Notes: generated by a model from the letters alone, not told the origin. Positions 1-32,950 are shown, counted from the first letter of the stretch. The stretch is 64,000 bases of DNA from Patescibacteria group bacterium (GCA_038063815.1 JBBTUJ010000003.1:12965-76964), one strand, 5' to 3'. A program made the numbers and translations.

Positions 1-19
1 ACCAACGACCGACAACTAG
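1..19. repeat. left arm ACCAACGACCGACAACTAG of composite inverted-repeat element (copy A)
   Basis: 18/18 nt identical to 34052-34069; roughly complementary to the right arm at 451-487. Confidence 0.6.
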
Positions 20-26: not shown

Positions 27-428
27 TCAGTCAAGGGATCTTTTAAACCCACCTATCTGTCTTGCCAGGGTTTCTGTTTTTTCTCGAATACCTTTCTGTT
101 GTAGAGCGTCAAGTATATTAATCTTACACAACGTATCTACTGCTGCTCGGACTTCATAGAGAGAACCGAGTGCGATATCCAGAAATCTCTTTAAATCTGC
201 GTCTGTTTTCTTTCCGCTACCTTCGGCAATATTTAAAATGACCGAAAAAGCAGCTCTGTTCAACTGACTTCCCAGATCAAACCGGTACTCTCTCGGAATA
301 GTTCGAACCAAAGCAGATATCTCGATAAACAGATCTTGAGCAAGTGTGTAAATATTCCAATCCAGAAAACGAAATTGCTTCATGAACGTAAAGGATGTTC
401 CTTCTCCCATAAAAACTTTATAAAACAT
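27..428 (-). CDS. four-helix-bundle protein (23S rRNA intervening-sequence protein family, PF05635-like)
   Basis: 133 aa with the 'NIAEGSGKKTDADLKRFLDIALGSLYEVRAAVD' motif typical of this family; flanked by inverted repeats (1-19 and 451-487). Confidence 0.7.
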   Translation of the reverse strand: MFYKVFMGEGTSFTFMKQFRFLDWNIYTLAQDLFIEISALVRTIPREYRFDLGSQLNRAAFSVILNIAEGSGKKTDADLKRFLDIALGSLYEVRAAVDTLCKINILDALQQKGIREKTETLARQIGGFKRSLD

Positions 429-450: not shown

Positions 451-487
451 GTTGTTGGTTGTAGGTTGTGGGTTGTGGGTTACAATA
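451..487. repeat. right arm GTTGTTGGTTGTAGGTTGTGGGTTGTGGGTTACAATA of composite inverted-repeat element (copy A)
   Basis: shares a 17-nt core GGTTGTAGGTTGTGGGT and the ...GGTTACAATA end with 34100-34141. Confidence 0.6.
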
Positions 488-493
488 TATTCC

Positions 494-1174
494 ATGGCCC
501 AAGCGCAAAAGGCAAAAGCGACGCAAGAATTTGTTCCTATTAAGGAAATACGGAGTGGCATCGTTGTTCTTAAAGACAACTCGTTGCGTTCCGTTCTCTT
601 GGCATCATCCTTGAACTTCGCGCTTAAATCAGAGGATGAACAAACCGCGATAATCTTGCAGTTCCAGAACATGCTGAATTCGCTTGAGTTCCCCATGCAA
701 TTCTTCATACAGTCCCGCGAGCTTGATATCCGGCCCTATCTTGCTCTCCTTGAGGCACAACTTAAAGAACAAACGATCGAACTCATCAAAGTACAGACGC
801 GCGAGTACATCGAGTTCGTCAAGGGATTTACAGAGAACGTGAACATCATGTCGAAGAGTTTCTTCGTTGTTGTTCCCTATAACCCCGCGGTTATCAAATC
901 AAAGGGTGGCGTGTCGGGTGTTCTTGGTGGGCTTATTGGAAAGAACAGAAACGACGCAGAGACGCGCCTCAGTCTCTTTGAAGAATCCCGGAGTCAACTC
1001 GAGCAACGAGTCGCCGTCATCACACAAGGACTCTCCCGCGCCGGCGTTCGCGCAATCCAGCTCGGAACAGAGGAGTTGGTGGAACTTTACTACAAACTCT
1101 TCAATCCGGGCGATTCGGAAAAACCTATCAAGATTGCAACCGACAGCCAACAAAAAAGTGCTGTAACTCGTTAG
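494..1174 (+). CDS. hypothetical protein, resembles the N-terminal region of Gram-positive-type VirB4/PrgJ/TcpF proteins
   Basis: The ATG at 494 lies just after the repeat; the ORF-track start at 452 is a TTG inside the repeat. The motif 'EFVPIKEIRSGIVVLKDNSLRSVL' is like VirB4 N-termini. Sits immediately upstream of the VirB4-like ATPase. Confidence 0.4.
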   Translation: MAQAQKAKATQEFVPIKEIRSGIVVLKDNSLRSVLLASSLNFALKSEDEQTAIILQFQNMLNSLEFPMQFFIQSRELDIRPYLALLEAQLKEQTIELIKVQTREYIEFVKGFTENVNIMSKSFFVVVPYNPAVIKSKGGVSGVLGGLIGKNRNDAETRLSLFEESRSQLEQRVAVITQGLSRAGVRAIQLGTEELVELYYKLFNPGDSEKPIKIATDSQQKSAVTR

Positions 1175-1181
1175 CCATCGT

Positions 1182-3122
1182 ATGTCTATCTTTGATGTAT
1201 TCAAAAGAAAAAAAGGTGTAGACGTGGAGATAACTCCCGTTTTGCCAAAAGATATCTACGAAGCCGGCGTTCTTGAACTCAAAGATATTTTGGCGCCTTC
1301 TGCGCTCAAAATCACACCACGAGAGCTCAACCTCGGAGACAAGATCGTACGGACATTCTTTGTAATCTCGTACCCCCGCTTCGTTCCCGACAACTGGCTT
1401 TCTCCTATCATCAATCTCGATAAAGTATTCGATATCTCGATTTCTATTGTCCCTGTTGAAACGGCACAGGTCCTCAAAGATTTCAGAAAGAAGGTGGCTG
1501 AGGTACAAAGCCAGATACATATGCGAGAGGAACGCGGGCTTGTGCGCGACCCAATGCTCGATGCCGCATACCAAAACCTCGAGGGTCTACGCGACCAACT
1601 CCAGCAGGCAACAGAGAAACTTTTTGATGTTGGTCTCTATATTTCTGTCTATGCAGATAACGAGAACGAGCTCGATAAACTGGAATCCGAGATTCGTTCG
1701 ATTCTTGAAGCGCGTTTGGTGTACCTCAAACCAGCCCTTTTTCAGCAAGAACAGGGGTTCAGGAGCGTTGTTCCTATGAATACAGATGAGCTCCAGGTTC
1801 ACTCAAAACTGAACACATCTCCTCTCTCAAGCTTCTTCCCATTCGTGTCGTTTGACCTCACGTCGGACAAGGGAATCCTCTACGGTATCAACAGACACAA
1901 CTCTTCTCTCATTCTCTTTGACCGATTTTCGCTTCCGAACTACAACTCGGTCACATTCGCAACATCTGGTGCAGGAAAAAGTTACGCGACGAAGCTCGAG
2001 ATTCTCCGTACGCTCATGTTCGATACCGAGGTCATCGTGATTGACCCCGAGCGCGAGTACGAGTTCATGGTTGAAGCAATGGGTGGGAGGTATTTCAATA
2101 TTTCTCTGACATCTGAACACCACATCAACCCATTCGACCTCCCTCCGGTCAAAGAAGACGAGTCACCATCAAATGTGTTGCGCTCGCACATCGTCACCTT
2201 GGTCGGGCTTTTCCGAATTATGTTCGGCGGACTGACACCAGAAGAGGACGCTATCATTGACCGCGCAATAAGCGAAACATACGCGCTCAAAGACATAACT
2301 GGTGATACTGACTTTTCAGGAAACCAGCCGCCGCTTCTTTCTGACTTTGAACTCGTCCTTGCCGGCATGCAGGGTGGGGAATCGCTCGTTCAACGTTTGA
2401 CCAAGTACACGAAAGGGACGTGGTCTGGATTCATCAATAATCCTTCGAATGTTGATATCAACAAAAAGTTCGTCGTCTTTTCTGTGCGCGACATGGAAGA
2501 TGAACTAAAACCCGTCGCGATGTACCTGGTCACACACTACATCTGGAGCGCCGTACGGAAAAACATCAAGAAACGACTCCTTGTCGTCGACGAAGCGTGG
2601 TGGATGATGAAATCAGAGGATACTGCGTCTCTCTTGTTCGGACTCGCAAAGCGAGGACGAAAATACTACCTCGGCATCGCAACGATTACGCAGGACGTCG
2701 GTGACTTCTTGCGCTCGCCATACGGGCTCCCCATCATCACGAACTCATCTATCCAACTTCTCCTCAAACAATCCCCCTCATCGATTGATCTCGTACAGAG
2801 AACATTCAACCTCACCGACGAAGAGAAGTATCTGCTCCTTGAATCGGAAGTCGGTGAAGGAATCTTCTTCGCAGGACTCAAACACGTGGCATCAAAAACG
2901 ATCGCCTCATACACAGAGGACCAAATCATTACATCCGATCCCTCGCAGATCTTGGCAATCAAAAAGTCCCGTGAAGAGTATCGTGCCGCACGAAAAAACC
3001 TCGACGGAGAGCAGGACGCTGGGACATCCGCATCACCACAATCAAATCCAAACGAACCATCGACCCCATCCGCTCCCGAGACCCTCACAAAGGGTGTAGA
3101 ATTAAAGAACGTGCTGGAATAG
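1182..3122 (+). CDS. virB4: VirB4/TrbE/CagE-family type IV secretion ATPase
   Basis: Walker A 'ATSGAGKSYATK' and Walker B 'LLVVDEAWWMM' (the DEAW signature of VirB4); 646 aa. Confidence 0.75.
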   Translation: MSIFDVFKRKKGVDVEITPVLPKDIYEAGVLELKDILAPSALKITPRELNLGDKIVRTFFVISYPRFVPDNWLSPIINLDKVFDISISIVPVETAQVLKDFRKKVAEVQSQIHMREERGLVRDPMLDAAYQNLEGLRDQLQQATEKLFDVGLYISVYADNENELDKLESEIRSILEARLVYLKPALFQQEQGFRSVVPMNTDELQVHSKLNTSPLSSFFPFVSFDLTSDKGILYGINRHNSSLILFDRFSLPNYNSVTFATSGAGKSYATKLEILRTLMFDTEVIVIDPEREYEFMVEAMGGRYFNISLTSEHHINPFDLPPVKEDESPSNVLRSHIVTLVGLFRIMFGGLTPEEDAIIDRAISETYALKDITGDTDFSGNQPPLLSDFELVLAGMQGGESLVQRLTKYTKGTWSGFINNPSNVDINKKFVVFSVRDMEDELKPVAMYLVTHYIWSAVRKNIKKRLLVVDEAWWMMKSEDTASLLFGLAKRGRKYYLGIATITQDVGDFLRSPYGLPIITNSSIQLLLKQSPSSIDLVQRTFNLTDEEKYLLLESEVGEGIFFAGLKHVASKTIASYTEDQIITSDPSQILAIKKSREEYRAARKNLDGEQDAGTSASPQSNPNEPSTPSAPETLTKGVELKNVLE

Positions 3123-3134
3123 CGGCCGTTCTTC

Positions 3135-3635
3135 ATGGCAGAACCTTCAAAAAAGCGCATTAGTAACACGACCGCAATGTTGCTTTTTGCTGTTGCGATT
3201 GTTTTTGACCTCATCAGTATTATTCCTTTTGTTGGGCAGTTCATCTCGACCGTTGGAGGAGCGGTGACTTTTTTTATCTGGTTCACAATCCTTGGCATTC
3301 CTTTGATAAGTCCTAAGAAAATCGCCTCATGGGGACTTAACCTCGCCGTTGAAGCATTTCCTGTACTCGGGTCTGTGTGGCCTGGTATAACTGCCGGTGT
3401 TATACTCATGGTGCTCATCACGCGCACCGAGGATACGTTGGGTGTTCAGATTCTTAAGACGAAAGGTGTCCCAGGACCCACACAAGCAAAAGCAACGCGA
3501 CGCATCCAAAATCCGGGTCGGGCGCTCGAGGCGCGAGCCCGCCTCGACCGGATGCAAGAAACACGAGCTCGCGCTGAAACACCAGCCAAAAAAACACCTC
3601 GGGTTGGAAACGACCTTACAGGAGACATCTCATGA
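3135..3635 (+). CDS. integral membrane protein (3-4 TM), T4SS-cluster associated
   Basis: hydrophobic segments 'LLFAVAIVFDLISIIPFVG', 'FFIWFTILGIPLI', 'VILMVLI'; near-contiguous with virB4. Confidence 0.45.
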   Translation: MAEPSKKRISNTTAMLLFAVAIVFDLISIIPFVGQFISTVGGAVTFFIWFTILGIPLISPKKIASWGLNLAVEAFPVLGSVWPGITAGVILMVLITRTEDTLGVQILKTKGVPGPTQAKATRRIQNPGRALEARARLDRMQETRARAETPAKKTPRVGNDLTGDIS

Positions 3636-4351
3636 AATACTTTTTGTACAGCGTCTGTTTTCTTTTTATCGCCGGGCTTCTGGTGACCTCCGTGTACGCA
3701 CAAGTAAACGTGACAACGGAGTTCGTTCCGACCAATACTACACTGGTATGGGAGGCGGAATCCTACACGCCGCCATTCTACAAAGGAAAGGCGCTGTATC
3801 CGACAGGTGGCACGGTACACGTTGTTGCGTTCCCTCCAGAGGGAGTCGGCAATCCCGAAACGCTGACCTATACATGGAAGGTTGATGGCGAAGTCCAAGG
3901 AGATCTGTCCGGTGTTGGAAGGCAGACATTTGTTTGGAGTGGAGGTCTTTTTAGCGGATCTCCCTTGATTGTTGTTGAGGTGTCGTCAGCCGCCGGAACG
4001 CATGGTGTTGGCGCAACGCGTATACCGGAAACAAATCCGGGAATCCTTCTGTACCAAGATGCTCCACTTGTTGGTATCCTTTTTAACACCGCCTTCACCG
4101 CTCATCCTTCGAATGAAATTGCCGTCGAAGCATACCCCCTCTTTTTTTCAACACAAACAAGAAACGAGCAACCTCTTCGCTATACGTGGTTTGCGGGAAA
4201 TACCGCATTACAAAATCCGCTCGACACACCAGCACGCATCGTGGTACGAACCGAGAACCCTGGGACAACAACGCTTTCGGTACGCGTCGAGAATGACAAC
4301 AACCTTCTTGAGTCGGCACGTGGAGAAATGACCATTCGTCTCACAGAATAA
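3632..4351 (+). CDS. secreted protein (signal peptide), unknown function
   Basis: N-terminus 'MKYFLYSVCFLFIAGLLVTSVYAQ'; start overlaps the previous stop by 4 nt. Confidence 0.45.
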   Translation: MKYFLYSVCFLFIAGLLVTSVYAQVNVTTEFVPTNTTLVWEAESYTPPFYKGKALYPTGGTVHVVAFPPEGVGNPETLTYTWKVDGEVQGDLSGVGRQTFVWSGGLFSGSPLIVVEVSSAAGTHGVGATRIPETNPGILLYQDAPLVGILFNTAFTAHPSNEIAVEAYPLFFSTQTRNEQPLRYTWFAGNTALQNPLDTPARIVVRTENPGTTTLSVRVENDNNLLESARGEMTIRLTE

Positions 4352-4352
4352 A

Positions 4353-5189
4353 ATGAAAACCTCAACAAAACTTCTTGTTCATTGTTCATTGTTCATTGTT
4401 TCTTTTTTTGCGATTACGGGCGTTGTGCTCGCAGCAAATGACTATACCCTCCTCGCACCATCGGTGCCTTTTATTGGAAAAACATACACCCCAGGAAATC
4501 TCGCGGGATACCTCCAGGGTATCTTTCGTTTGGGCATCGGGATTGCTGTTACGCTCGCAATTCTTATTCTCGTCAAAAATGGAATCCAGTGGATGGTTTC
4601 CGATGTCGCAGGAAAAAAAGAAGAGGTAAAAGATTGGTCGTGGGACGCCATTCTCGGACTTCTTCTCGCGTTTTCCGCATGGCTCATTCTAAGTACCATA
4701 AACCCAGATCTTGTTAAATTTAAACTCGTACAGACAATTAAAGATGCCAAAGAACAAGCACTTCGTCCTCCCGTTGGGGGTACGGTAACAACGGTAGGAA
4801 AACCGTGGCCAGACGACTCAAAGGAAAGAGGTCTGCTTGATGCTGGGGGCGTTCATGTAAAGACACCAACGTGCAAGACAGATGTTCAAAAGGGCTGTAC
4901 GAGCGTTGCGGGTCTTTCTCAAACGTCAATCTCTAAACTCATCCAGTTAAAGGCGAAGTGTAAGTGCGAGGTATTCATTTCGGGCGGAACAGAGTATTGG
5001 TTACACAAAACTCACGGCGGAAACAATACTGTTGATATTCGTAATTATGCTGACTTAGCTGCATATTTGGGAGGTATGGGAGAAAAGTGCGGAGACACAA
5101 AACCAAAAGATGGTTTGACGTTTCACTGGGAAGACAAAAGTTGTCCGTGGGCCACCGCAGGAGATGGTCACTGGCACGTTCCTTTGTAA
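4353..5189 (+). CDS. signal-peptide protein with two further TM helices and a Cys-rich C-terminal domain; possible pilin-like (VirB2/TrbC-like) T4SS component
   Basis: 'MKTSTKLLVHCSLFIVSFFAITGVVLAA' then 'GIFRLGIGIAVTLAILILV' and 'AILGLLLAFSAWLILSTI'; the 5' end carries TTCATTG tandem repeats. Confidence 0.4.
   Translation: MKTSTKLLVHCSLFIVSFFAITGVVLAANDYTLLAPSVPFIGKTYTPGNLAGYLQGIFRLGIGIAVTLAILILVKNGIQWMVSDVAGKKEEVKDWSWDAILGLLLAFSAWLILSTINPDLVKFKLVQTIKDAKEQALRPPVGGTVTTVGKPWPDDSKERGLLDAGGVHVKTPTCKTDVQKGCTSVAGLSQTSISKLIQLKAKCKCEVFISGGTEYWLHKTHGGNNTVDIRNYADLAAYLGGMGEKCGDTKPKDGLTFHWEDKSCPWATAGDGHWHVPL
4376..4403. repeat. tandem heptad repeat (TTGTTCA/TTCATTG) x about 3.5
   Basis: ttgttcattgttcattgttcattgtttc; the same motif recurs at 32913-32946 and 62415-62454, each at the 5' end of a pilus/T4SS-like gene. 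Confidence 0.7.
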
Positions 5190-5194
5190 GTAAG

Positions 5195-6478
5195 ATGTAT
5201 ATGCCCAAAAAAGTATCCCTCATTCTTACGCTTATCGTCATCCTCGCACTTGTCGGTGGCGTTTGGTTTTGGTTCGCATACATCCACACACCAGCCTCCG
5301 AATCTCCCACAACAGAAGAGTCGCGGGGTGGATTTTTCTCTTTCTTTGGTAACTACTTCGGTGGAAGTGGTGAGCCGGGGACACAGACCCCAACCAACGA
5401 AACCCCGGAAGTGCTTGCTCCCGCGTTCTCATTCCGAGAGCGTCTTACAAAGGAACGAATGCTCTCTCTTTCAGATGTTCCTCTTTCGGGTACAACGTTT
5501 GCACTCATGCGCAAAGGAACGACGACCCCCGCACTGTTCGACGAGCAGGTTCGGTTTGTTGAGAGAGAAACGGGGCACGTTGTTGACCTCTCAATCACAA
5601 CAGGGGACACCGAGCGCATCTCAAACACAACAATCCCCGGTATTCAAGAGACCATCTGGGGCAATGGCGGAAACACAGTTGCCCTTCGTTACCTCGCAGA
5701 AGATAGCGAAACGATAGAGACCTTTGTGGGAACGCTTCCGACAACAACTCCTGTTATGAACACGGACCTTGTTGGAACATTTTTTCCGCAAAACATCACA
5801 TCTCTCGCCATGCGTCCGACGAACGGAGAGGTGTTCTATGTCATCAAAAATCAAGATGGGGCGGCAGGACGTATTACAAATGTCGCAGGCACGAACACCC
5901 GAACTCTCTTTTCTTCTCCTCTTCGTGAGTGGGCCGCGCTCTGGACAAGCCCTTTAATCACCCTCACCACAAAACCGTCTGCACGAGCGACCGGATCTGC
6001 ACACTCTCTTAACCCATCAACGGGAGCGCTTGTACGGCTCACCCCAAACACATCGGGGCTAACTGTTCTTATGAACACGGAGCAAACTCGCGTGCTCTAT
6101 ACCAACACCACCCCTTCTACGGTTTCACTCTTTATACTCAACCTCACCACACAAGAAACATGGACTGTGCCCTTGAGAACTCTTCCAGAAAAGTGTGTGT
6201 GGCGAGATGAAACGAACCTCATATGCGCTGTACCGGACAACGTCCCTGGAAATATGCCCGACATTTGGTACCAAGGACGCGTGTCACTTTCCGATACCTT
6301 ATGGGCAATCGACACCGAAACCAAACTTGTTGATTTCCTCATCTCACCAGAGGAAATTATTGGAGAGGGTGTTGATGCGATTGGGCTTTCACTTTCTTCA
6401 GACGGCACAATTCTCTCGTTCATCAATAAAAAAGATCTGCGTGGTTGGATCGCAGATGTTACGTCAACCAACAACTAG
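5195..6478 (+). CDS. secreted/membrane-anchored Thr-rich protein, unknown function
   Basis: ATG at 5195 lies just after the upstream stop; the ORF-track start at 5087 overlaps the previous gene. TM 'VSLILTLIVILALVGGVWFWF'. C-terminus '...TSTNN' is encoded by the repeat hairpin. Confidence 0.5.
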   Translation: MYMPKKVSLILTLIVILALVGGVWFWFAYIHTPASESPTTEESRGGFFSFFGNYFGGSGEPGTQTPTNETPEVLAPAFSFRERLTKERMLSLSDVPLSGTTFALMRKGTTTPALFDEQVRFVERETGHVVDLSITTGDTERISNTTIPGIQETIWGNGGNTVALRYLAEDSETIETFVGTLPTTTPVMNTDLVGTFFPQNITSLAMRPTNGEVFYVIKNQDGAAGRITNVAGTNTRTLFSSPLREWAALWTSPLITLTTKPSARATGSAHSLNPSTGALVRLTPNTSGLTVLMNTEQTRVLYTNTTPSTVSLFILNLTTQETWTVPLRTLPEKCVWRDETNLICAVPDNVPGNMPDIWYQGRVSLSDTLWAIDTETKLVDFLISPEEIIGEGVDAIGLSLSSDGTILSFINKKDLRGWIADVTSTNN

Positions 6479-6500
6479 TGCTTTGTTTAGTTGTTGGTTG
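6465..6500. terminator. 13-bp perfect hairpin (CAACCAACAACTA / TAGTTGTTGGTTG) between convergent genes; candidate bidirectional terminator
   Basis: the stem arms overlap the stop codons of the 5195-6478 gene (TAG at 6476-78) and of yidC (TAA complement at 6487-89); built from the CAACCAACAAC repeat family. Confidence 0.55.
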
Positions 6501-7233
6501 TTGGTTGTTGGTTTTCGGCCGTTATTTTTTTCCTTGTCCACCATTCTTGCCCGATTGAGAATAGGTTTGATGTCGTCCAATAGAGCGCAACCGATGCGGG
6601 TAGCGCAGAAGCGATAAAGACGATGACAACGGGGAAGATGTATTTCATCTGGAACTGCAAACTCTTACTGAACTCGTTCCCGAATGATGGCTTGGTGTCT
6701 TTCTTTGTCTCAGGAACGCGCATGAGCTTCGCTTGGAAGAATTGTGAGACGCCGGCAAGGATAGCGATAGGAATACTCCTTACTGTCACGTCCACAAGTC
6801 CCAGGAACATCGTATTGATGTGTGACGGGGCATCAACGAATGAGTAGAGGAATGTGGGGTCTATCGCGGGAAAACCGGCCCGCAGAACCATGAAATAGAG
6901 ACCGAAAATGATCGGAATCTGAATGAAAAGAAAGAGGATATTCGAGAACGGATTAACCTTGTTGTTCCGATAGAGCTCCATCATCTTCACTGCCTGCTCT
7001 TGTTTGTCGTTCTTGTACTTCTCTTTAATGGCATCCATCTCCGGTTGGAGTTTTTGCACCATGAGTTGGGTGCGGACCGATTTTTGCGCGATAGGGAAGA
7101 GGATGAGTCGAATCACGCACGTGAAGACAATCACGATTACCCCGAGATCTGCCCAGGGAAGCGCCTGCATCAAAAGAACAATCCCGTTATACAAAGGTGT
7201 GGTAACAAACGTTCCGAATATGCTGTGTGACAT
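6487..7233 (-). CDS. yidC: membrane protein insertase YidC (short form)
   Basis: 248 aa, multi-TM, Oxa1/YidC-like; sits in the conserved rpmH-rnpA-yidC arrangement; C-terminus '...QQPTTNN'. Confidence 0.8.
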   Translation of the reverse strand: MSHSIFGTFVTTPLYNGIVLLMQALPWADLGVIVIVFTCVIRLILFPIAQKSVRTQLMVQKLQPEMDAIKEKYKNDKQEQAVKMMELYRNNKVNPFSNILFLFIQIPIIFGLYFMVLRAGFPAIDPTFLYSFVDAPSHINTMFLGLVDVTVRSIPIAILAGVSQFFQAKLMRVPETKKDTKPSFGNEFSKSLQFQMKYIFPVVIVFIASALPASVALYWTTSNLFSIGQEWWTRKKITAENQQPTTNN

Positions 7234-7254: not shown

Positions 7255-7626
7255 CTAACTTTTGCGCATTCGGACATCCGATGTCCCGTCTTCGGACATC
7301 GAATATTCGAAAAGAAGATTCTTTATTTCCACCTCAAGTTCTTTGAACGAGAGTTCTGGTGCATTCTTTTTTGCAAACAACACATATCGACCGGGAGAGA
7401 TCGGTGTGTTTTTTTCCGACCGACGGAACACGTCATACACGCGGCGCTTGAGTTTGTGTCGCGCAACCGCTGTCCGTGCGACCTTTTTTGAAACAACAAC
7501 AGAGAAACGTGATGCCACGTCAGCGTGTGACACGGCGCGAAGAGAGAAGTGGGTGGCATGAAAAACCTGTCCGTCGCGTCCCGACGGAAATTCCTGCCGT
7601 GTTATACGACGCCTCTTTGAAAACAT
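7255..7626 (-). CDS. rnpA: ribonuclease P protein component
   Basis: 'SKRRRITRQEF...' RnpA motif; start taken at the internal M 'MFSKRRR'; lies downstream of rpmH. Confidence 0.8.
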   Translation of the reverse strand: MFSKRRRITRQEFPSGRDGQVFHATHFSLRAVSHADVASRFSVVVSKKVARTAVARHKLKRRVYDVFRRSEKNTPISPGRYVLFAKKNAPELSFKELEVEIKNLLFEYSMSEDGTSDVRMRKS

Positions 7627-7717
7627 ATAGAACGTATTTAAAACACGATTTGCTGCGCTGCCCGCTCCGGTCCTCGCCCGCGCCTTGCCTCTCATGTTTT
7701 AAATACGTTCTAGTGGG

Positions 7718-7852: not shown

Positions 7853-7971
7853 AACTTTAATTGTGTGTTGTTGGTCGTTGGTTGTCGGTTAATTTGTCCC
7901 CACATTATTAACATAGTTATCTCCTTCTCACAAGTTCTCTCGGCACACCACTCATCTATAATGAACACTCT

Positions 7972-9348
7972 ATGACAACAACAACGACCACTCCCACCGA
8001 CACAAAGTCATTGTGGAAACATGTTCTCTCCGGCGTCGAGATTGTTGTGTCGAAACCCGTATTTCGAACATGGTTCAAGGGTACACACATCGTTCGTGTT
8101 GATGATGGGGTTGTCTATATTGGTGTTCCAAACCTTTTTGCAAAGGATTGGATTTCGTCAAAACATCACAAGACGATACTCCGGCTCTTGCGTGAGGTCT
8201 CAGACATCGTCCGTTCAGCAGAATATGTTATCTCAACCAAGGCTCCCGAGGACGCAACACTTCCGACCCTGACGCGCGAAGACGCGCTTCCACAATCGTT
8301 CGGTGAGTTGCCACTCAAAGATCTCTACATCAACAGGGCGGACAACTTGAATCCGCGCTACACGTTCGACTCATTTGTTGTTGGTTCGTTCAACGAACTC
8401 GCACATGCCGCCGCACAGGCAATCCTTGAGCGTCCTGGTATGCGCTATAACCCGCTCTTTGTGTATGGACAAACAGGACACGGAAAAACACACCTTATCC
8501 AGGCAATCGGAAACGAGATAAAAAAGAGATTCCCTGACAAAAAGGTGTTTTATGTTACCTCTGAACGGTTTTCTCAGGAGCTGGTGAATGCGATACAAAC
8601 GAATGCTGTTGGGGCATTCAAGGAAAAGTATCGAAAATTCGATGTTTTGATCATGGACGATGTGCAGTTTCTTTCAAGTAAGGAAAAGACGCAGGAAGAA
8701 CTCTTCCACACATTTAATGATATCTACGAGAAGAACGGTCAGATTATTTTTTCATCTGATCGTCATCCCAACTACATCTCTTCGATTGCAGATCGGTTGA
8801 AATCTCGCTTCAACGCTGGAATGACTGTTGATATCCCGCCCCCTGACGCAGAGTCCCGGATGGCAATCGTCAAATCAAAAGCGTCAGAAAACGGCATCAC
8901 CCTTCCTCAAGAAACACTCATGTTCCTCGCCACATCGATTGAAGGAAACATCCGCGAGCTTGAGGGGGCACTCAATTCACTTCTTGTACAAACACACATG
9001 AAGAAGCGCGATCTCACACTCGCCGAGATTAAAGAGATCATAAAAAACAACGTACGCCCCAAGAAGATGGTTGCGGTCAAAGAGGTGGTTAAGATTGTGT
9101 CTGGATTCTATAACCTCGACGAGGAAAGTATTTATAAGAAAAGCCGAAAAAAGGAGGTGGTTAGGCCTCGTCAAATCATCATGTATCTTCTCCGGGAGGA
9201 TTTTGCGCTTCCGTATCCGTCGATAGGACAGAAGATGGGTGGTAGAGACCACACAACAGTTATTCACTCATATGAGAAGGTTAAGGAAGATATCAAAACA
9301 GACCACCAACTAGAACAAGAGATCGCACAACTGCGTGCGATGCTCTGA
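7972..9348 (+). CDS. dnaA: chromosomal replication initiator protein DnaA
   Basis: AAA+ Walker A 'GQTGHGKTHL', C-terminal DnaA-box-binding domain, classic position. Confidence 0.95.
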   Translation: MTTTTTTPTDTKSLWKHVLSGVEIVVSKPVFRTWFKGTHIVRVDDGVVYIGVPNLFAKDWISSKHHKTILRLLREVSDIVRSAEYVISTKAPEDATLPTLTREDALPQSFGELPLKDLYINRADNLNPRYTFDSFVVGSFNELAHAAAQAILERPGMRYNPLFVYGQTGHGKTHLIQAIGNEIKKRFPDKKVFYVTSERFSQELVNAIQTNAVGAFKEKYRKFDVLIMDDVQFLSSKEKTQEELFHTFNDIYEKNGQIIFSSDRHPNYISSIADRLKSRFNAGMTVDIPPPDAESRMAIVKSKASENGITLPQETLMFLATSIEGNIRELEGALNSLLVQTHMKKRDLTLAEIKEIIKNNVRPKKMVAVKEVVKIVSGFYNLDEESIYKKSRKKEVVRPRQIIMYLLREDFALPYPSIGQKMGGRDHTTVIHSYEKVKEDIKTDHQLEQEIAQLRAML

Positions 9349-9754: not shown

Positions 9755-10855
9755 ATGAAAGCAACCCTTCCAACCAGAGATTTTCAAATAGCTGTTTCAA
9801 ACGCGGGACGTGTTACAGGAAAACATCTTTCACTTCCGATACTCCGCTGTCTTCTTGTTGTGACAACAAAAAACGAGATTACGATTCGTGCAACAAATCT
9901 TGATCTGGGAATCGAGATACGGATTCCCGCACGGGTTGAGAAGGAAGGCGTGTTTGCTGTTCCTGCAGACGTACTCGACGCGTTCGTTTCGAACATCTCA
10001 TCAGGAGACGTGCTCACCATATCCCACGAGGGGTCAACACTTCATCTCTCGACCCCAAAAACAAAAGCAAAGATTGGGACGTTCTCTCACGAGGATTTTC
10101 CGTCGCTTCCCGCGGTGCCGGACGAAGAACATTTTACTGTCGGCGCTGGAGAATTTGCGGGGGCACTCCGAAGTGTGTCCTGGGCCGCCTCTGCATCAAG
10201 TATCAAACCAGAGCTCGGGAGCGTGTATCTTTATCCGAACGGTGACGAACTCGTGTTCGTCGCGACCGACTCATTTCGCCTTGCTGAAAAAAAGATTCCC
10301 GCAAAACCCTCAAAGAAATTTGAATCGCTTTTGATTCCACTACGGAACGTGACGGAGATCATCCGCCACCTCGAGGAATCGAAAAGGGATGTTGTTATCC
10401 GTGGAGACGGACACCAGATTGCACTTACACTCGACGGAACGTATATCACGTCGCGCGTCATCGAGGGGGTGTTTCCTGACTATCACCAAATTATTCCAAA
10501 AACACACGATACCGACGCCGTTCTTTTAAAACAAGATCTTGCTGACGCGCTCAAACAACTCCGTGTCTTTTCGGACCAATTCAATAAACTCACCGCATCC
10601 ATTGACCCGAAGAAAAAGACCTTCACGCTCGCAAGCGCAAACCAAACAACAGGAGAGAGTATTGTGACCCTAGACGCGGCGCTTTCGGGGGAACCTTTGG
10701 AACTTCACTTCAACCTTCTTTTTGTGAGCGATTGTCTTCAGTCGGTGAGAACAGACAGCGTCAAAATCGAATTTGGAGGCGGAGGTAAGCCCGCACGGAT
10801 TACTCCGATTGGCGATGCGTCATTTGTATACATCGTCATGCCGATGAATAGGTAG
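9755..10855 (+). CDS. dnaN: DNA polymerase III beta sliding clamp
   Basis: 366 aa, three-domain clamp-like, directly downstream of dnaA. Confidence 0.85.
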   Translation: MKATLPTRDFQIAVSNAGRVTGKHLSLPILRCLLVVTTKNEITIRATNLDLGIEIRIPARVEKEGVFAVPADVLDAFVSNISSGDVLTISHEGSTLHLSTPKTKAKIGTFSHEDFPSLPAVPDEEHFTVGAGEFAGALRSVSWAASASSIKPELGSVYLYPNGDELVFVATDSFRLAEKKIPAKPSKKFESLLIPLRNVTEIIRHLEESKRDVVIRGDGHQIALTLDGTYITSRVIEGVFPDYHQIIPKTHDTDAVLLKQDLADALKQLRVFSDQFNKLTASIDPKKKTFTLASANQTTGESIVTLDAALSGEPLELHFNLLFVSDCLQSVRTDSVKIEFGGGGKPARITPIGDASFVYIVMPMNR

Positions 10856-17579: not shown

Positions 17580-19259
17580 CTAGACGGAGAGATCGACAAC
17601 ACGTTCGATTTCTTCGAATGTTGTCGTGCCTTCAAGCACGCGGAGGATTGCGTCTTGTGAAAGAGAGAGAAACCCTTGTTCGCGTGCCGCCTTTCTAATT
17701 TCGCGCTCGCTCGGACTCTCCTCAACAATCCTCTCGATGGTCTCATTCATCACAATTGCCTCAAAGAGCCCAATACGGCCCTTATATCCGTCTCCACCGC
17801 ACTCGGCACAGCCCGGACCGGCCTCAAATACCTTCTCCCTTTGAATACCCGCGATCTTTGTGGGATCTCCCACATCACTCAAAATCCTCTCAACAAGTGC
17901 ACGTCGTTCATCTGGAATCGGTATCTCTTTTTTACATGCGGGACAGAGCGTACGAACCAGTCGCTGTGCGAGCGCGACATTTATTGCCGAGCCCAAGATG
18001 CGAGAATTGATACCGATGTCGATAAGGCGCGTGAATGCTCCCGCGGCGGAGTTTGTGTGAAGTGTTGAAAAAACTAAGTGACCGGTGAGCGCGGCATGAA
18101 TGGCAATCTCCGCTGTTTCGTTGTCGCGAATCTCACCAACCATGATGATGTCGGGGTCTTGCCGCACCGCCGCGCGAAGCCCGCTCTCGAACGTATAGTT
18201 TTTCTCTGCATCTACCTGTGTCTGCACGATTCCCGGAAGGTGATACTCAACAGGGTCTTCGATTGTGATGATCTTTACCTCCGGACTGTGCACTCTTTTC
18301 AAGAATGCGTAGAGAGTCGTTGTTTTTCCTGATCCGGTTGGGCCGGTTGTCAAAATCATACCGTTTGGCTTCGTTATTTCGTGCTCGAGGACGGCTCGTA
18401 GATCATCTCGCATACCAAGCTTCTCAATCGAGACGCTGATTGAATCGGGATTGAGGACACGCATGACGACCGACTCGCCGTACTGCCCCGGCAGGATAGA
18501 TGTACGGATCTCGATGTCCGAGGGGTCGATTTTGATGCTGAAACGACCGTCCTGCGCTTCGCTCTGGATATTCAATTTAAGTCCCGAGAGAAGTTTGAGG
18601 CGGGAGAGAAGTAGGCGATATGTTTCGTGATCAAAAAAGGAGACATCGGTCAAAATGCCGTCGAGTCGCATACGCAGTCGCACCTGCTTTTCTTCCGGTT
18701 CGATGTGGATGTCGGAAGAGCGTGTTGCAAGTGCGCTCGCGAGGAGAACCTCGACGATGCGCGATGTGCGAAATGCTTTTTTGAGATGCACCGTTTCTTC
18801 GATGAACCGCCGCACGTCCTCGACGGTATGCACATCTTTTATGAACGTATTGATATCTTCACTTGAGACATCAAGCATCCCTTTCTTGCTCTCTGACGCG
18901 AACTGGATGTCTTTGAAGCGATCCCACGCGAAGGTGAGGCTCTTTTTCGACGCAAGATATGTGTTCACCGAGAAACCTCGCGCTTCAAGATCCATAACAA
19001 CTTCACGTGCCGCTTCTCCTTCGGGAGAGTGCATCGCGACGTCAATCTCTTTATTCAAACGATTGAAAACCGCAACCTCGGCGGTTCGTGCTGTGCTTTC
19101 TGCCAAAAGGATGAGGGCATCGGTATTGATGGGAGTCGTAGTCAAATCGACATACGGGATGCCGTATTTCTGTGAAAGATTTTGGAGAGCGTCCTCCTCC
19201 TCTTTTTCGCGGAGCTGGTCATACTTCCGTGATTGTTTCGATTCGTCAAATTGGATCAT
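17580..19259 (-). CDS. pilB: type IV pilus assembly / type II secretion ATPase (GspE/PilB family)
   Basis: 'ILTTGPTGSGKTTTLYAF', 'GEIRD', C-terminal Cys4 'CPAC...CAECGGDGY'; start taken at the internal 'MIQFDESK'. Confidence 0.85.
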   Translation of the reverse strand: MIQFDESKQSRKYDQLREKEEEDALQNLSQKYGIPYVDLTTTPINTDALILLAESTARTAEVAVFNRLNKEIDVAMHSPEGEAAREVVMDLEARGFSVNTYLASKKSLTFAWDRFKDIQFASESKKGMLDVSSEDINTFIKDVHTVEDVRRFIEETVHLKKAFRTSRIVEVLLASALATRSSDIHIEPEEKQVRLRMRLDGILTDVSFFDHETYRLLLSRLKLLSGLKLNIQSEAQDGRFSIKIDPSDIEIRTSILPGQYGESVVMRVLNPDSISVSIEKLGMRDDLRAVLEHEITKPNGMILTTGPTGSGKTTTLYAFLKRVHSPEVKIITIEDPVEYHLPGIVQTQVDAEKNYTFESGLRAAVRQDPDIIMVGEIRDNETAEIAIHAALTGHLVFSTLHTNSAAGAFTRLIDIGINSRILGSAINVALAQRLVRTLCPACKKEIPIPDERRALVERILSDVGDPTKIAGIQREKVFEAGPGCAECGGDGYKGRIGLFEAIVMNETIERIVEESPSEREIRKAAREQGFLSLSQDAILRVLEGTTTFEEIERVVDLSV

Positions 19260-19325
19260 AGGGTAATAGTAGCAAATCAGGGTTGTACAGGTGAGGATGT
19301 TTAAGAAATGTGTGCGTGGGGGCTT

Positions 19326-19362
19326 CTTTAAAAACAACACCCGCCGACGCGAGGGGCTCGCG
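19326..19362 (-). terminator. GC-rich hairpin + T-run terminator (minus strand)
   Basis: on the minus strand: CCCCGCCGCGCGAGccccTCGCGTCGGCGGG followed by TGTTGTTTTT. Confidence 0.6.
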
Positions 19363-20814: not shown

Positions 20815-23271
20815 ATGCCGAAAAAACCATCACCAACAAAAACAAAAAAGGGGAAAACGGGCGGAAAGCCGAAGCGGCTCGTGCTTCTTGATGCACACGC
20901 GATTATTCATCGTGCATACCACGCGCTTCCTGACTTTACATCCGCAACAGGCGAGCCGACGGGGGCGCTCTATGGTCTTGCGGCGATGCTCCTGAAGATT
21001 ATCGCGGATTTGAAGCCGGACTACATCGCGGCCGCATACGATCTTCCAAAACCAACACACCGCCACATCGCGTACGAAAAATATAAAGCGACACGCAAAG
21101 AGCTTGAAGAACCTCTTGTTGCTCAGCTTGTGCGAAGCAGGGACGTTTTCAAGGCATTCTCGATTCCAATTTACGATAGGGAAGAATTCGAAGCGGACGA
21201 TATCTTGGGCACGATTGTTGAAATGTTCAAAGACGATTCTTCAGTCGAAATCGTAATCGCGTCGGGCGACATGGATACGCTCCAACTTGTTTCGGGAGCG
21301 CGCGTCAAAGTGTTCACGCTCCGGAAGGGCATACAAGATACGATTCTCTACGACGAAAGCGACGTCGAGAAGCGCTTTGGATTTCCTCCAGTCCTTTTGC
21401 CTGACTACAAAGGTCTCCGCGGAGACCCGTCGGATAATATTCCCGGCATTGCTGGTATCGGAGAAAAAACAGCAACGACACTTATCACGACGTTTGGTGA
21501 CCTGGACGCGCTCTATAAAACACTTGCAAAAGGAGAGGAGAAGTTTTTAGGAGCAGGGATAACAAAACGAATCGTCGGACTTTTGAAAGAAGGAGAAGAA
21601 GAAGCGCGATTTTCGAAACTTCTCGCAACGATTCGGCGGGATGCGCCCATTACGTTCACACTTCCTGACACCGTCTGGCGCGAGCACGTTTCGGTGTCGG
21701 AGATTGTCACTCTTTTCACCGAACTCGGATTCCGCTCCCTCGTTGCCCGGGCAAAGGAAGCATTTCCTGAAATAAACCAACAACCAACAACAAACAACCA
21801 ACAACAAATATTTTACACAGAACCCACAACCTCTTTGTCTCATCAAGAATTAACTGAAACAAAGGTCGCCCTGTGGCTTCTGAACTCCGAGATCACCAAT
21901 CCGACGGAGGAAGATATCAAATATTTCGCACGGACGGACGACATCAAAAAGGCACGCGAACACATTCTTTCTGAGGTACAAAAGCAGGGTCTTACGGACG
22001 TTTTTGAAAAGATCGAAAAACCGCTTACGCCTGTTCTTGAAAAGATGCACGAGCGAGGTGTTCGCATCGATACGTCGTACTTAAGCGACATCGCGGAATC
22101 GTACCACGCGGAGCTCGATGCACTGAAGAGAAAGATATTCGAGCGTGCCGGAATGGAATTTAACTTAAATTCCCCGCGACAACTCGGAGATGTTCTCTTT
22201 ACCACACTAGGACTCACGGGAGGAAAGAAAACATCAACAGGGCAGAGGTCAACGCGCGAGTCAGAACTCGCAAAACTCGCGGACAAGCACCCGATTATTG
22301 GAGAGATTTTGCAACACAGGGAACTCCAGAAACTCCTCTCAACATATATTGATGCATTTCCAAAACTTCTTGGTCCCGATGGGCGTTTGCACACAACATT
22401 TGTACAAACGGGAGCGGCAACGGGACGTATGTCGTCTCAAAATCCGAACTTGCAGAATATTCCGATCAAAACGGAGCGCGGCCGCGCTGTTCGTGGAGCA
22501 TTTGTTGCATGTCCGGGTTTTGTGCTCGCAACATTTGACTACTCGCAGATTGAGCTCAGAATCGCAGCGATTCTTTCGCAAGATGAAAAACTTCTCAAAA
22601 CATTTTCTGAAGGCGGTGATATTCACACGGCTGTTGCGTCAGAGATTTTTAATGTGCCACAAAACGATGTGACGCAGACGATGCGCCGCACCGCGAAAGT
22701 CATTAACTTCGGTATCATCTACGGCATGGGCGCGAACGCGCTCGCAGCAACGGCGGGCATGAGTCGTAAAGATGCGCAAAAATATCTCGCGGAATATGAA
22801 AAGACATTCCCGACCCTCTCGCGTTGGATCGAGACCCTTTTTGGTGAAGTCCGAAAAAAAGGTTACACAGAAACACTTTTTGGGCGTCGGAGGCATCTTC
22901 CCGGTATCCGATCACCTCTTCCGTATATTCAGGCAGAAGCAGAGCGCCAAGCGGTCAATGCGCCCATTCAGGGAACTTCTGCAGACATCATCAAACGCTC
23001 AATGGTTGAGGTTGATGAATATATTGCACGAGAAAAATTAGATGACGACGTTTTTGCGATTCTTCAGATTCACGATGAACTCATGTATGAAATAAGGGAA
23101 GGTGTTGCAGACAAGGTCGTTCCGGAAATAAAAAAGATTATGGAGGCAGGGCTTAGAGACCACCTGCCTGCCGGCAAGGCAGGCGAGACGTATGGGGTTC
23201 CGATTGTTGTTGATGCCTCGGTCGGCACGCGGTGGGGAGAAATGAAAAAAGTAAACAACAAGAAAGAATAA
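20815..23271 (+). CDS. polA: DNA polymerase I (5'-3' exonuclease + polymerase; no 3'-5' exonuclease domain)
   Basis: motifs 'RRRHLPGIRS', 'INFGIIYGMG', 'QIHDELMYE'; 818 aa; the linker contains repeat-encoded 'QQPTTNNQQQ'. Confidence 0.9.
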   Translation: MPKKPSPTKTKKGKTGGKPKRLVLLDAHAIIHRAYHALPDFTSATGEPTGALYGLAAMLLKIIADLKPDYIAAAYDLPKPTHRHIAYEKYKATRKELEEPLVAQLVRSRDVFKAFSIPIYDREEFEADDILGTIVEMFKDDSSVEIVIASGDMDTLQLVSGARVKVFTLRKGIQDTILYDESDVEKRFGFPPVLLPDYKGLRGDPSDNIPGIAGIGEKTATTLITTFGDLDALYKTLAKGEEKFLGAGITKRIVGLLKEGEEEARFSKLLATIRRDAPITFTLPDTVWREHVSVSEIVTLFTELGFRSLVARAKEAFPEINQQPTTNNQQQIFYTEPTTSLSHQELTETKVALWLLNSEITNPTEEDIKYFARTDDIKKAREHILSEVQKQGLTDVFEKIEKPLTPVLEKMHERGVRIDTSYLSDIAESYHAELDALKRKIFERAGMEFNLNSPRQLGDVLFTTLGLTGGKKTSTGQRSTRESELAKLADKHPIIGEILQHRELQKLLSTYIDAFPKLLGPDGRLHTTFVQTGAATGRMSSQNPNLQNIPIKTERGRAVRGAFVACPGFVLATFDYSQIELRIAAILSQDEKLLKTFSEGGDIHTAVASEIFNVPQNDVTQTMRRTAKVINFGIIYGMGANALAATAGMSRKDAQKYLAEYEKTFPTLSRWIETLFGEVRKKGYTETLFGRRRHLPGIRSPLPYIQAEAERQAVNAPIQGTSADIIKRSMVEVDEYIAREKLDDDVFAILQIHDELMYEIREGVADKVVPEIKKIMEAGLRDHLPAGKAGETYGVPIVVDASVGTRWGEMKKVNNKKE

Positions 23272-25554: not shown

Positions 25555-25600
25555 AATACAGTAACAAACAACCAACAACCTACAACAAGCAAGAGAGGCC
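25555..25600. repeat. CAACCAACAAC-family repeat (gtaacaaacaaccaacaacctacaacaag) in the 5' region of the LTD gene
   Basis: the same motif family as at 1-19, 451-487, 6465-6500, 7861-7890, 20105-20120, 21778-21810, 34052-34141. Confidence 0.6.
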
Positions 25601-29998: not shown

Positions 29999-30006
29999 TA
30001 AACAAG

Positions 30007-30354
30007 ATGTTATACAGACAAACGCCGAGACACCGGATTATTTTTTGGACTCATCTCCTCATTATTTTAGTAGTATGGTCTTCTCCGTTTTGGATTCCGT
30101 GGAGAATTATTTGTGTTGGTATAGCCGCCTACTACCTTCAGTTGCTTCTGGTGGGCAATTGCATTTTGACGAAGCTTCAATTTCAATCGACAGAGCTAGA
30201 TTTAAGTTTCCACTCTTATTGTATAGAACAACTCGGAATCAACCTGAACCGTCGTAGGGTTTTGTTTGTAGTTGATCACATAGTGCCGTGGATTATTCTT
30301 GGTGTAAGTTTGTTGTGGCAAATATACCTACACCACTCTTCTGTTTTGATTTAA
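30007..30354 (+). CDS. small integral membrane protein, hypothetical
   Basis: AT-rich; multiple hydrophobic helices; start placed after the tRNA. Confidence 0.4.
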   Translation: MLYRQTPRHRIIFWTHLLIILVVWSSPFWIPWRIICVGIAAYYLQLLLVGNCILTKLQFQSTELDLSFHSYCIEQLGINLNRRRVLFVVDHIVPWIILGVSLLWQIYLHHSSVLI

Positions 30355-30390
30355 ACTTCGCTCCTCAAATAACTGTAAAAAATACATAAA

Positions 30391-30789
30391 ATGAAAACAT
30401 CTCTCTACCATATACAGCTTAATGTTTCTGATGCCGCAACATCATTTCCATTCTATAAAGACCTGTTTCATTATTTTGAGTACAAGATAATAGACGAGGG
30501 AGAAGGGTACCTCGGCGTGTCGAATGGAACAACTGATTTTTGGATTATGACGACCGAAGAAAAATTTAAGAATGCCAACTTCCACCGGAAAAATCCCGGC
30601 GTAAACCACCTTGCCTTTCAGGTAGAGAAAAAAGAAGACGTTGATACCTTTGTAAAAGATTTTCTTAAACCACGAAATATTTCAACTTTATACGAAACAC
30701 CAAAAGCATTTCCTGAATACACACCAGATTACTACGCTGTATTTTTTGAAGATCCCGATCGAATCAAACTGGAGATCGTATATAAATAG
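30391..30789 (+). CDS. VOC / glyoxalase-bleomycin-resistance family protein
   Basis: 132 aa, 'HIQLNVSD...NHLAFQVE' VOC fold motifs. Confidence 0.65.
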   Translation: MKTSLYHIQLNVSDAATSFPFYKDLFHYFEYKIIDEGEGYLGVSNGTTDFWIMTTEEKFKNANFHRKNPGVNHLAFQVEKKEDVDTFVKDFLKPRNISTLYETPKAFPEYTPDYYAVFFEDPDRIKLEIVYK

Positions 30790-30812
30790 GCCTTTCTTGG
30801 TACAATCACTAT

Positions 30813-32946: not shown

Positions 32947-32950
32947 CACT

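Follow-up and report, generated by a model that had tools for sequence, protein, structure and literature searches.

Why does a Patescibacteria chromosome carry a VirB4-centred type IV secretion system (T4SS) cluster beside its replication origin, and what kind of machine do these genes encode? We addressed this question for a 64,000-nt stretch from a Patescibacteria group bacterium (GCA_038063815.1, JBBTUJ010000003.1:12965-76964; the window hereafter, meaning the whole stretch of DNA that was analysed). A model's reading of the DNA by itself (the sequence-only reading) had described a VirB4-containing, pilus-linked locus of candidate phyla radiation (CPR) type, possibly serving host interaction or uptake and not canonical conjugation, which matches the literature (PMC12102498, PMC10633639, PMC12857230). 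We find that the cluster is very probably the chromosomal T4SS already published for Patescibacteria, and our favored reading, to which we assign a probability of about 0.8, is a host-directed T4SS derived from monoderm MPF-FATA (pGO1/TrsC-TrsD-TrsE-like) conjugation machinery without its DNA-processing part. The cluster comprises six open reading frames (ORFs) at 494-6478, all on the plus strand and with the same coordinates as first described:

O1, 494-1174, plus strand: 226 aa from an ATG; TrsD-like, detached N-terminal segment of a monoderm VirB4
O2, 1182-3122, plus strand: 646 aa; VirB4 ATPase
O3, 3135-3635, plus strand: 166 aa; small membrane protein with ~4 transmembrane (TM) segments and a charged low-complexity tail
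O4, 3632-4351, plus strand: 239 aa; signal peptide or anchor followed by two Ig-like beta-sandwich domains
O5, 4353-5189, plus strand: 278 aa; VirB2-like pilin with a C-terminal globular domain
O6, 5195-6478, plus strand: 427 aa, 14.8% Thr; N-terminal TM anchor and beta-propeller

O2 is the motor of this system. Its match to the NCBIfam model for the 'VirB4-like conjugal transfer ATPase, CD1110 family' (NF045971) reaches 362.6 bits, above the cut-off of 325, and covers model positions 185-731 of 752. Matches to TraC, VirB4/CagE and TraG-P-loop models are weaker (P-loop_TraG 3.5e-22), and O2 does not attain the cut-offs set for the Gram-negative VirB4, TraC and TrbE models. The Walker A motif SGAGKS (residues 262-267, nt 1965-1982) and the Walker B motif VVDEAW (residues 468-473, nt 2583-2600) are both intact, and only an acidic, Pro-rich tail from ~residue 600, the last ~45 residues, is non-conserved. 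The VirB4/TrbE-family ATPase with a DEAW Walker B that had been proposed at this position is thus borne out, and searches with hidden Markov models (HMMs) did not place it in the FtsK/HerA family, the DUF87/HerA match being weaker and confined to the shared P-loop.

The first ~180 positions of the VirB4 model are encoded outside O2, by the separate gene O1. O1 matches NF045971 at model positions 2-90 and the VirB4 model of Mycoplasma integrative conjugative elements (ICEs), NF045975, at positions 99-233 (E 1.7e-13); it also has a weak TrsD/TraD match (NF041427), carries the precomputed Pfam label PF26593 (TraC-like), and has homologues of 24-30% identity on Firmicutes megaplasmids, where they are flanked by PrgI and a VirB4-like ATPase. 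The sequence-only reading had left it open whether this separate N-domain arose by splitting or by duplication. Comparison of O1 with O2 found no sequence similarity between them, so the domain was split off and not duplicated, and the two proteins together make one VirB4 whose N-domain is supplied in trans, as with TrsD.

To place these genes among their relatives, we scanned one genome per species, which gave more than 550 relatives of O2, and analysed the best 80 loci (L001-L080), all of them in Paceibacteria/Parcubacteria-type metagenome-assembled genomes with O2 identities of 74-86%. The same loci bear on whether the split is an assembly or frameshift artefact of a single virB4, as could be suspected from the mere 7 nt between the O1 stop and the O2 start and from their differing frames; 1172-1181 had been singled out for such a frameshift or stop. 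O1 has its own stop and O2 its own start in 78 of 78 related loci; the distance between them varies from -8 to 486 nt, each of the three relative frames is represented, and five loci have a gene-sized gap (442-486 nt), which holds a gene of the 23S rRNA intervening-sequence protein (IVP) type in L022, L024, L025 and L042 and a 127-aa ORF in L006. A stop and restart conserved across such varied gaps and frames therefore excludes a frameshift or assembly artefact. On short Logan contigs, which come from independent assemblies, independent public gene calls place identical ORF boundaries, and separate TrsD-type genes are known both in pGO1-type systems (PMC12102498) and on a Geobacillus plasmid. 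We regard the artefact as having practically no probability left; the split is ancient.

Spacing and flanking sequence define the extent of the locus. From O1 through O6 the intergenic gaps are only 7, 12, -4, 1 and 5 nt, so the six genes form a single operon, in keeping with the single orientation claimed for VirB4 and the genes downstream of it. The sequence-only reading had started the cluster at 452, a position that coincides with a longer, TTG-initiated form of O1 unused in public gene calls. This start proved too far right, since the cluster extends past the left edge of the window, just inside which one more gene ends:

1-19, plus strand: final 19 nt of a prgI/virB3-like gene, the rest of which lies beyond the left window edge

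The window itself holds no PrgI/VirB3 copy. Exact-sequence look-up of the VirB4 gave no match, and those of O5 and O1 returned short Logan contigs only, which sufficed to reveal the upstream prgI. One contig, L083, overlaps the left end (window nt 1 is L083 nt 443) and encodes at L083:21-461 a 146-aa protein with two TM segments that matches Pfam PrgI (PF12666, 46.8 bits, cut-off 27), is 47% identical to the L011 orthologue and has its stop codon at window nt 17-19. A PrgI/VirB3 protein of ~145 aa with two TM segments (PF12666, 41.8 bits) stands upstream of O1 in 78 of the 80 related loci.

On its other side the operon runs into genes that mark the origin region, as had been noted from the sequence, and the cumulative GC-skew minimum falls at ~10-12 kb in the window:

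yidC, 6487-7233, minus strand: converges with O6
rnpA, 7255-7695, minus strand: beyond yidC
dnaA, 7972-9348, plus strand: starts 1.5 kb downstream of the operon
dnaN, 9755-10855, plus strand: after dnaA

Both the order and the site are conserved, gene order and content in about 60-78 of the 80 related Paceibacteria genomes. Related loci share the order prgI-O1-O2-(O3)-O4-O5-O6 converging on yidC-rnpA and followed by dnaA-dnaN. With the window proteins as tblastn queries, matches in constant order were found for O1 in 78, O4 in 76, O6 in 65, YidC in 60, O5 in 58, DnaA in 54 and DnaN in 52 of the 80 loci, many of the loci that lack a given match being short or stopping before that gene; O3 has positional orthologues in at least 54 of the 80. 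The accessory genes assigned to the cluster are, then, syntenic with VirB4. Median identity to the window is 77% for VirB4, 60% for O1, 57% for DnaA, 44% for YidC, 43% for DnaN, 37% for O5, 36% for RnpA, 32% for O4 and 31% for O6. The loci were chosen as the best VirB4 matches, which favors the level of the VirB4 figure, and genes were compared within each genome; VirB4 identity exceeded that of every other compared gene in every locus, and that of DnaA in 54 of 54, which points to unusually strong purifying selection on VirB4.

These data also bear on whether the cluster is a decayed ICE that lost its relaxase and coupling protein and is now drifting, an origin suggested by the conjugative nature of the closest characterised families (CD1110/CTn and pGO1 TrsD/TrsE) and by homologous gene triplets on Firmicutes plasmids. 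A plasmid or ICE would occupy variable sites, whereas at least 54 genomes, from several Paceibacteria lineages, have the cluster at an identical position by yidC-rnpA-dnaA. Its ORFs are all intact and closely coupled, no integrase was found in the window, and the GC content of the cluster equals that of its flanks. Because the cluster is fixed beside the origin and its motor is more conserved than the replication initiator, we interpret it as a core cellular machine rather than a decaying mobile element, and the decayed ICE as very unlikely.

A separate observation concerns the direction of transcription. The operon is situated where GC skew is negative with respect to the origin, and its transcription runs toward the origin and so meets the presumed leftward replication fork head-on; yidC-rnpA are co-directional with that fork, and the arrangement is kept in all relatives that have the flank.

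Which T4SS parts accompany the motor bears on what the machine moves. No VirD4, relaxase or VirB11 had been visible to the sequence-only reading, and none emerged from the scans: the five window ORFs that reach 500 aa include no type IV coupling protein (T4CP), the 33 ORFs scanned outside the cluster yielded no relaxase family, and neither the cluster nor those 33 ORFs gave a VirB11, VirB6 or VirB8 family. No cluster ORF matched TrbL/VirB6 or PrgH, and no second VirB4 or second (short) pilin is present in the window. The ORFs scanned in the 64-kb window thus do not supply the relaxase, T4CP and origin of transfer (oriT) of a conjugative system.

This shortage in the ORFs scanned suits import over export, and one alternative is a nucleic-acid import machine like ComB of H. 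pylori or the archaeal Ced system, pulling in host DNA or RNA as a source of nucleotides. Patescibacteria genomes lack nucleotide synthesis (PMC12102498), and both feeding on host RNA and a monophyletic VirB4 have been described (bioRxiv 10.64898/2026.06.21.733656). O2 itself matches the NCBIfam CedB model (E 5e-7), but only over the Walker B region and at 28.7 bits against a cut-off of 700; the operon contains no CedA/ComB-type partner families and no DNA-binding or nuclease component, and O3-O6 give no sign of nucleic-acid handling. We consider import unlikely, and it is a functional sub-variant of the host-directed T4SS, not a different structure.

The presumptive filament subunit is O5. 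It matches Pfam T4SS_pilin (PF18895) at 28.1 bits (cut-off 26.6); among 45 homologues, 44 match PF18895 and 13 match TrbC/VirB2, and a protein identical to O5 is named 'pilin' by NCBI. O5 consists of a signal peptide (residues 1-27), a hairpin (residues 50-116, nt 4500-4700), a linker and a C-terminal domain (residues 150-278, nt 4800-5186). The AlphaFold2 model has a predicted local distance difference test (pLDDT) score of 83, mostly >90 in the C-domain, and shows helices at 2-23, 50-82 and 86-116. The pilin/VirB2-like topology proposed earlier, a signal peptide and two TM segments, is therefore upheld by both the family match and the modelled hairpin. The O5 profile matches A. tumefaciens VirB2 (8cue) weakly (E 0.35), and at ~250 aa with its extra domain the mature protein is larger than a small VirB2/TrbC pilin subunit (~70-100 aa).

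What had been described as a Cys-rich C-domain turned out to be a swappable module. In 45 sequences, C182, H221, D228 and H273 are invariant and C174, C203, E214, H218, E260 and H275 are at least 90% conserved. H221-x6-D228 ... H273-x-H275 reproduces the motif H-x6-D...H-x-H, which we take to be the signature of LAS/M15 zinc peptidases. When the C-domain was aligned with VanY modules by hhalign, these motifs fell in register with SxHxxGxAxD and WHW, at a probability of only 1.3%. Set against the assignment are the lack of any Pfam (45 members), PDB-sequence profile or PHROG match for the domain, and fold searches that were uninformative, their matches being dominated by the hairpin. That the domain is a zinc cell-wall hydrolase, as its conserved residues suggest, is in our estimate a little short of an even bet.

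Relatives carry other modules behind the same hairpin. Database homologues of O5 end in VanY (PF02557), SLT (PF01464), SLT_2 (PF13406), NlpC/P60 (PF00877) or YkuD (PF03734), and the L053 orthologue carries VanY. We identified 67 pilin ORFs in 62 related loci: in 52 the hairpin is followed by 100 aa or more, and 15 are short and stand-alone. Nine of the 52 extended pilins have the module found in the window and two have VanY. The other extensions are unassigned, and a Pfam scan of ten examples yielded nothing credible for this part; in L006 the C-terminal module is a separate ORF. The pilin of L012, whose VirB4 is 86% identical, aligns with O5 only over residues 6-136, and P0013, which apparently shares a contig with homologues of O6 (69%) and O4 (66%), has 59% identity to O5 across residues 1-147 but is unrelated beyond. 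Judged from these sequences, the module behind the hairpin swaps rapidly, even between the closest relatives.

Fusions of this kind allow a different view of O5, in which the hairpin is a mere membrane anchor and O5 a VirB1-type wall hydrolase of a pilus-less, Gram-positive-type channel that forms no filament. It is established that the hydrolases of Gram-positive T4SSs, such as PrgK and the TraG of pIP501, are multidomain enzymes anchored in the membrane (cited in PMC12102498). The relatives' hairpins are fused to VanY, SLT, NlpC/P60 or YkuD, and the window offers no second short pilin gene. Short pilins that stand alone, without an enzyme module (15 of 67), and the separately encoded module of L006 tell against this view, because they indicate that the hairpin has a role of its own. 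In VirB2-type pilins the C-terminus is expected on the outside of the filament, as in F- and T-pilus structures, and this placement would permit a C-terminal passenger. Pilin arrays are, moreover, essential in Saccharibacteria (PMC10633639). We find the pilus-less anchor doubtful.

Within the favored host-directed T4SS, we rate the chance that the system builds an extracellular VirB2-type filament or tube as even. A further step, which we put forward as speculation and hold to be improbable, is that the Paceibacteria T4SS pilin is a modular display subunit, with a conserved VirB2-type hairpin that an exceptionally conserved split VirB4 extracts and polymerises, and a rapidly exchanged C-terminal cargo, LAS-like in the window and VanY, SLT, NlpC/P60, YkuD or an unknown fold in relatives (a polymorphic 'armed pilus'). 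If true, such a pilus would present host-specific wall-cutting or wall-binding activities to breach or grip the host envelope, and would be without counterpart among described T4SSs.

Three further envelope proteins complete the operon, two of them as described from the sequence. O3 is the small polytopic membrane protein said to follow VirB4, with ~4 TM segments, and D25 and P83 are near-invariant among its positional orthologues. It has no Pfam or PDB match, and Pfam searches on 55 orthologues found no TrbL/VirB6; as these searches and a PDB profile gave only TM-composition noise (sodium channels), we rejected them as evidence that O3 is a VirB6. By position O3 is a candidate membrane platform and VirB6 analogue. 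O4 is the reported signal-peptide protein, with a signal peptide or anchor; it matches Ig_3 (E 6e-4), its profile weakly matches Ig-like PDB domains (E 0.005-0.6), a few homologues are annotated BiPBP_C, and the motif PPFYKGK is invariant. Most relatives have three Ig-like domains in ~340 aa. O4 comes in two sizes, ~240 aa in the window, L009, L012, L031, L044, L051, L052 and L054 and ~330-370 aa in most relatives, a difference that would fit the gain or the loss of a single Ig-like repeat at the N-terminus.

O6 has the 427 aa and the Thr richness attributed to it, and what had been taken for a secreted protein is modelled as a membrane-anchored beta-propeller. The AlphaFold2 model (pLDDT 90.3, predicted template modelling score 0.81) places a TM anchor at residues 5-30, a disordered Thr/Pro/Gly linker at 31-78 and an extracytoplasmic beta-propeller at ~89-421. 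Foldseek searches of the PDB matched RACK1/WD40, tricorn, acylaminoacyl-peptidase and TolB propellers (E 1e-8 to 1e-10). The fold is generic and TolB is matched no better than WD40 or peptidase propellers, so the model points to no specific function; none of 233 O6 homologues has a Pfam family of its own. From their synteny and topology, the Paceibacteria-specific O3, O4 and O6 may stand in for the VirB6/VirB8 functions that went undetected.

A mechanism that fits these parts can be outlined. PrgI and O1 would dock the VirB4 hexamer on the cytoplasmic membrane, and O5 would be inserted by Sec and lose its signal peptide. In Gram-negative systems VirB4 is held to extract VirB2 from the membrane; here VirB4 would use ATP to pull the O5 hairpin out of the membrane for polymerisation, or to build a short conduit, on a platform including O3. 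The membrane-anchored ectodomains of O4 and O6 could form, stabilise or organise the wall-spanning part or contact the host surface, and the C-terminal module of O5 would act outside the membrane on peptidoglycan, either that of the host or, during assembly, that of the cell itself. Such a machine would produce a filament or channel directed at the host and needed for epibiotic growth, by way of attachment, macromolecule exchange or both, and not plasmid transfer.

Several points weigh against this reading of a host-directed T4SS. VirB6 and VirB8 homologues were undetected at the locus, O3, O4 and O6 are tied to the T4SS by synteny alone, and the scans covered 64 kb, so that the rest of the genome could encode a T4CP or relaxase. 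The function is extrapolated to Paceibacteria by analogy with one Saccharibacteria transposon-sequencing (Tn-seq) study. A 140-aa globular domain on each pilin subunit is atypical and may block polymerisation, in which case the hairpin is perhaps only an anchor for a wall enzyme.

The left end of the operon carries an additional gene together with copies of a short repeat, another of which forms a hairpin at the right end:

27-428, minus strand: four-helix-bundle gene of the 23S rRNA intervening-sequence protein family (PF05635, 84.8 bits; TIGR02436), between prgI and O1
451-479, plus strand: heptamer repeat (GGTTGTN)x4, right arm of an inverted repeat around the four-helix-bundle cassette, the left arm being 2-16 on the minus strand
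6465-6500, no strand assigned: hairpin with a 14-bp stem made of the heptamer repeat, between convergent O6 and yidC; probably a bidirectional terminator

The IVP-type gene is missing from the prgI/O1 junction in most relatives, has the opposite orientation there in L012, and lies between O1 and O2 in the four loci named above; it is therefore an inserted cassette and no T4SS component. In L025 (9536-9993), L042 (9542-9989) and L024 (1518-1975), the IVP gene is flanked by genome-specific inverted repeats ~400 nt apart, of 15 nt in L024 and 25-33 nt in L025 and L042. This combination of gene and inverted repeats is reminiscent of intervening sequences in rRNA; it may be a mobile cassette processed by RNase III.

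The heptamer (GGTTGTN)n and its complement give 19 matches in the window against 0.3 expected, at 2-16 (minus), 451-479, 6490-6518, 7867-7888, 21777-21805 (minus), 25565-25586 (minus), 34053-34067 (minus), 34105-34133 and 55388-55402. Copies frequently form inverted pairs that give hairpins, as at 6465-6500 (O6/yidC), at 34053-34133 (the pilM/pilN junction) and around the four-helix-bundle gene. Translated, the repeat yields 'QPTTNN'-like C-terminal tails on O6 and YidC, with similar tails on PrgI and PilM, and, within a linker of PolA, the insert 'NQQPTTNNQQQ'. The repeat has the look of a repetitive extragenic palindromic (REP)-like or terminator element leaking into coding sequence. We rejected the idea that the heptamers are direct repeats bounding a mobile T4SS island, as the motif occurs at ~9 sites across the window.

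Type IV pilus genes lie 11-58 kb from the operon, and the complete set that had been claimed (two PilB, PilMNO) stands for both PilB, PilM and PilN; the ORF in the PilO position after pilN (34701-35249) has no Pfam match:

17580-19340, minus strand: PilB, confirmed
62599-63837, plus strand: PilB/T2SSE paralogue, 41% identical to the PilB at 17580-19340, cut by the right edge with no stop codon in the window
32912-34695: PilM and PilN, confirmed

The neighboring genes are otherwise housekeeping genes, among them those for PBP1, TyrRS, RuvB, PolA, a Mur ligase and CopA. Two stretches of low GC content, 30001-32000 (0.405) and 42001-46000 (0.39-0.43) against ~0.48-0.50 elsewhere, may be acquired DNA. 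The first holds a 415-aa single-TM protein without a family; the second adjoins a copper-handling group of CopA (45401-47704), HMA-DsbD (53276-54310) and two unannotated 7-TM proteins, which lie among the copper-handling genes 45-50 kb from the operon.

Much of bacterial diversity belongs to the host-dependent Patescibacteria, and few of their machines besides the T4SS are known to be required for epibiotic growth (shown in Southlakia). The locus adds nothing categorically new; it is a clean, complete Paceibacteria example that yields three leads: a VirB4 under tighter constraint than DnaA; a pilin hairpin with a fast-swapping extracellular module, often a cell-wall enzyme; and 4-TM, Ig-like and beta-propeller envelope proteins that may well replace the missing VirB6/VirB8 functions. 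All three point to a wall-breaching, host-contact role.

The system as such is already published, including TrsD, PrgI, PF18895 pilins, proximity to dnaA and the lack of a relaxase. Wang et al. (2023) showed by Tn-seq that the T4SS cluster SEML1_0006-0019 is essential for epibiotic growth of Southlakia epibionticum (Saccharibacteria); that system is most like Gram-positive conjugative systems, has essential pilins and is without coupling and relaxase proteins (PMC10633639). Its TrsD and PrgI homologues are essential, as stated in PMC12102498 citing Wang et al. Quinonero-Coronel et al. (2025) found VirB4 in 2,417 of 3,035 genomes surveyed, nearly all in one clade nested in MPF-FATA, with TrsD, a remote homologue of the VirB4 N-terminus, as the partner met most often and, after it, PrgI/VirB3, some VirB6 and VirB2-like pilins (PF04956/PF18895); VirB6 lies near virB4 in a minority of genomes, relaxases are nearly absent, and the Paceibacteria T4SS adjoins dnaA, dnaN and rnpA (PMC12102498). 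The CPR T4SS is summarised in a 2025 FEMS review (PMC12857230), and a 2026 preprint describes tubular structures that link a cultivated parasite of this phylum (there called 'Minisyncoccota') with its host and that are proposed to be T4SS pili (bioRxiv 10.64898/2026.06.21.733656).

From its 74-86% identity to the 80 Paceibacteria/Parcubacteria VirB4s and its best family, the MPF-FATA-type CD1110, we infer that O2 belongs to the Patescibacteria VirB4 clade. The locus shares with the Patescibacteria chromosomal T4SS a monoderm-type VirB4, adjacent TrsD and PrgI/VirB3, a VirB2-like PF18895 pilin, the lack of a relaxase or T4CP nearby, the site by dnaA/dnaN/rnpA and vertical inheritance. It differs in having no detectable VirB6 or separate VirB1 and, where Southlakia has an array of six short pilins, one pilin with a C-terminal globular module. 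PMC12102498 does not discuss the Paceibacteria-specific O3, O4 and O6 or an IVP cassette in the operon; the three clade-specific accessory proteins, the IVP-gene cassettes inside the operon and, relative to published accounts, the swappable pilin module with H-x6-D...H-x-H found here may be new details. Compared with the Gram-negative pilins VirB2, TrbC and TraA, O5 has the same signal peptide and two hydrophobic helices in a hairpin (modelled at 50-82 and 86-116), but also a 160-residue C-terminal extension (linker and globular Cys/His-rich domain), no cyclisation or acetylation machinery, and a monoderm envelope as its setting.

A plasmid counterpart is found in Geobacillus subterraneus on pGspE55-1 (NZ_AP022558.1, 35.7-44.4 kb), which encodes PrgI, an O1 homologue (30% identity over 93% of O1, and longer at 318 aa), a DUF87 VirB4-like ATPase, a 907-aa protein and an M23 peptidase. 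Its order mirrors that of pGO1 TrsC-TrsD-TrsE, and similar clusters occur on Clostridium, Paenibacillus and Bacillus megaplasmids. Unlike our locus, this cluster is plasmid-borne, with a separate 877-aa M23 hydrolase and no PF18895 pilin annotated. In the plasmid region analysed (L085, 35361-51948), two T2SS-F family genes lie a few kb upstream of it, so that T4SS-like and Tad/T4P-like genes are paired there too, and 65 of the 67 plasmids matching O1, pGspE55-1 included, are typed 'non-mobilizable'.

Among the MPF-FATA systems of Gram-positive bacteria (pGO1/pSK41, and also pIP501, pCF10 and Tn916/CTn CD1110), TrsC-TrsD-TrsE of pGO1/pSK41 has the same gene order as the locus, with a VirB3-like protein, a small VirB4-N-like protein and the VirB4 ATPase, and the monoderm architecture without a VirB7/9/10 outer-membrane core and the association with wall hydrolases are likewise shared. 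The locus lacks the relaxase, T4CP, PrgH/VirB6, PrgL/VirB8 and adhesin of these systems; it has a VirB2-type pilin, which the Gram-positive systems lack, and a fixed chromosomal site rather than a mobile element.

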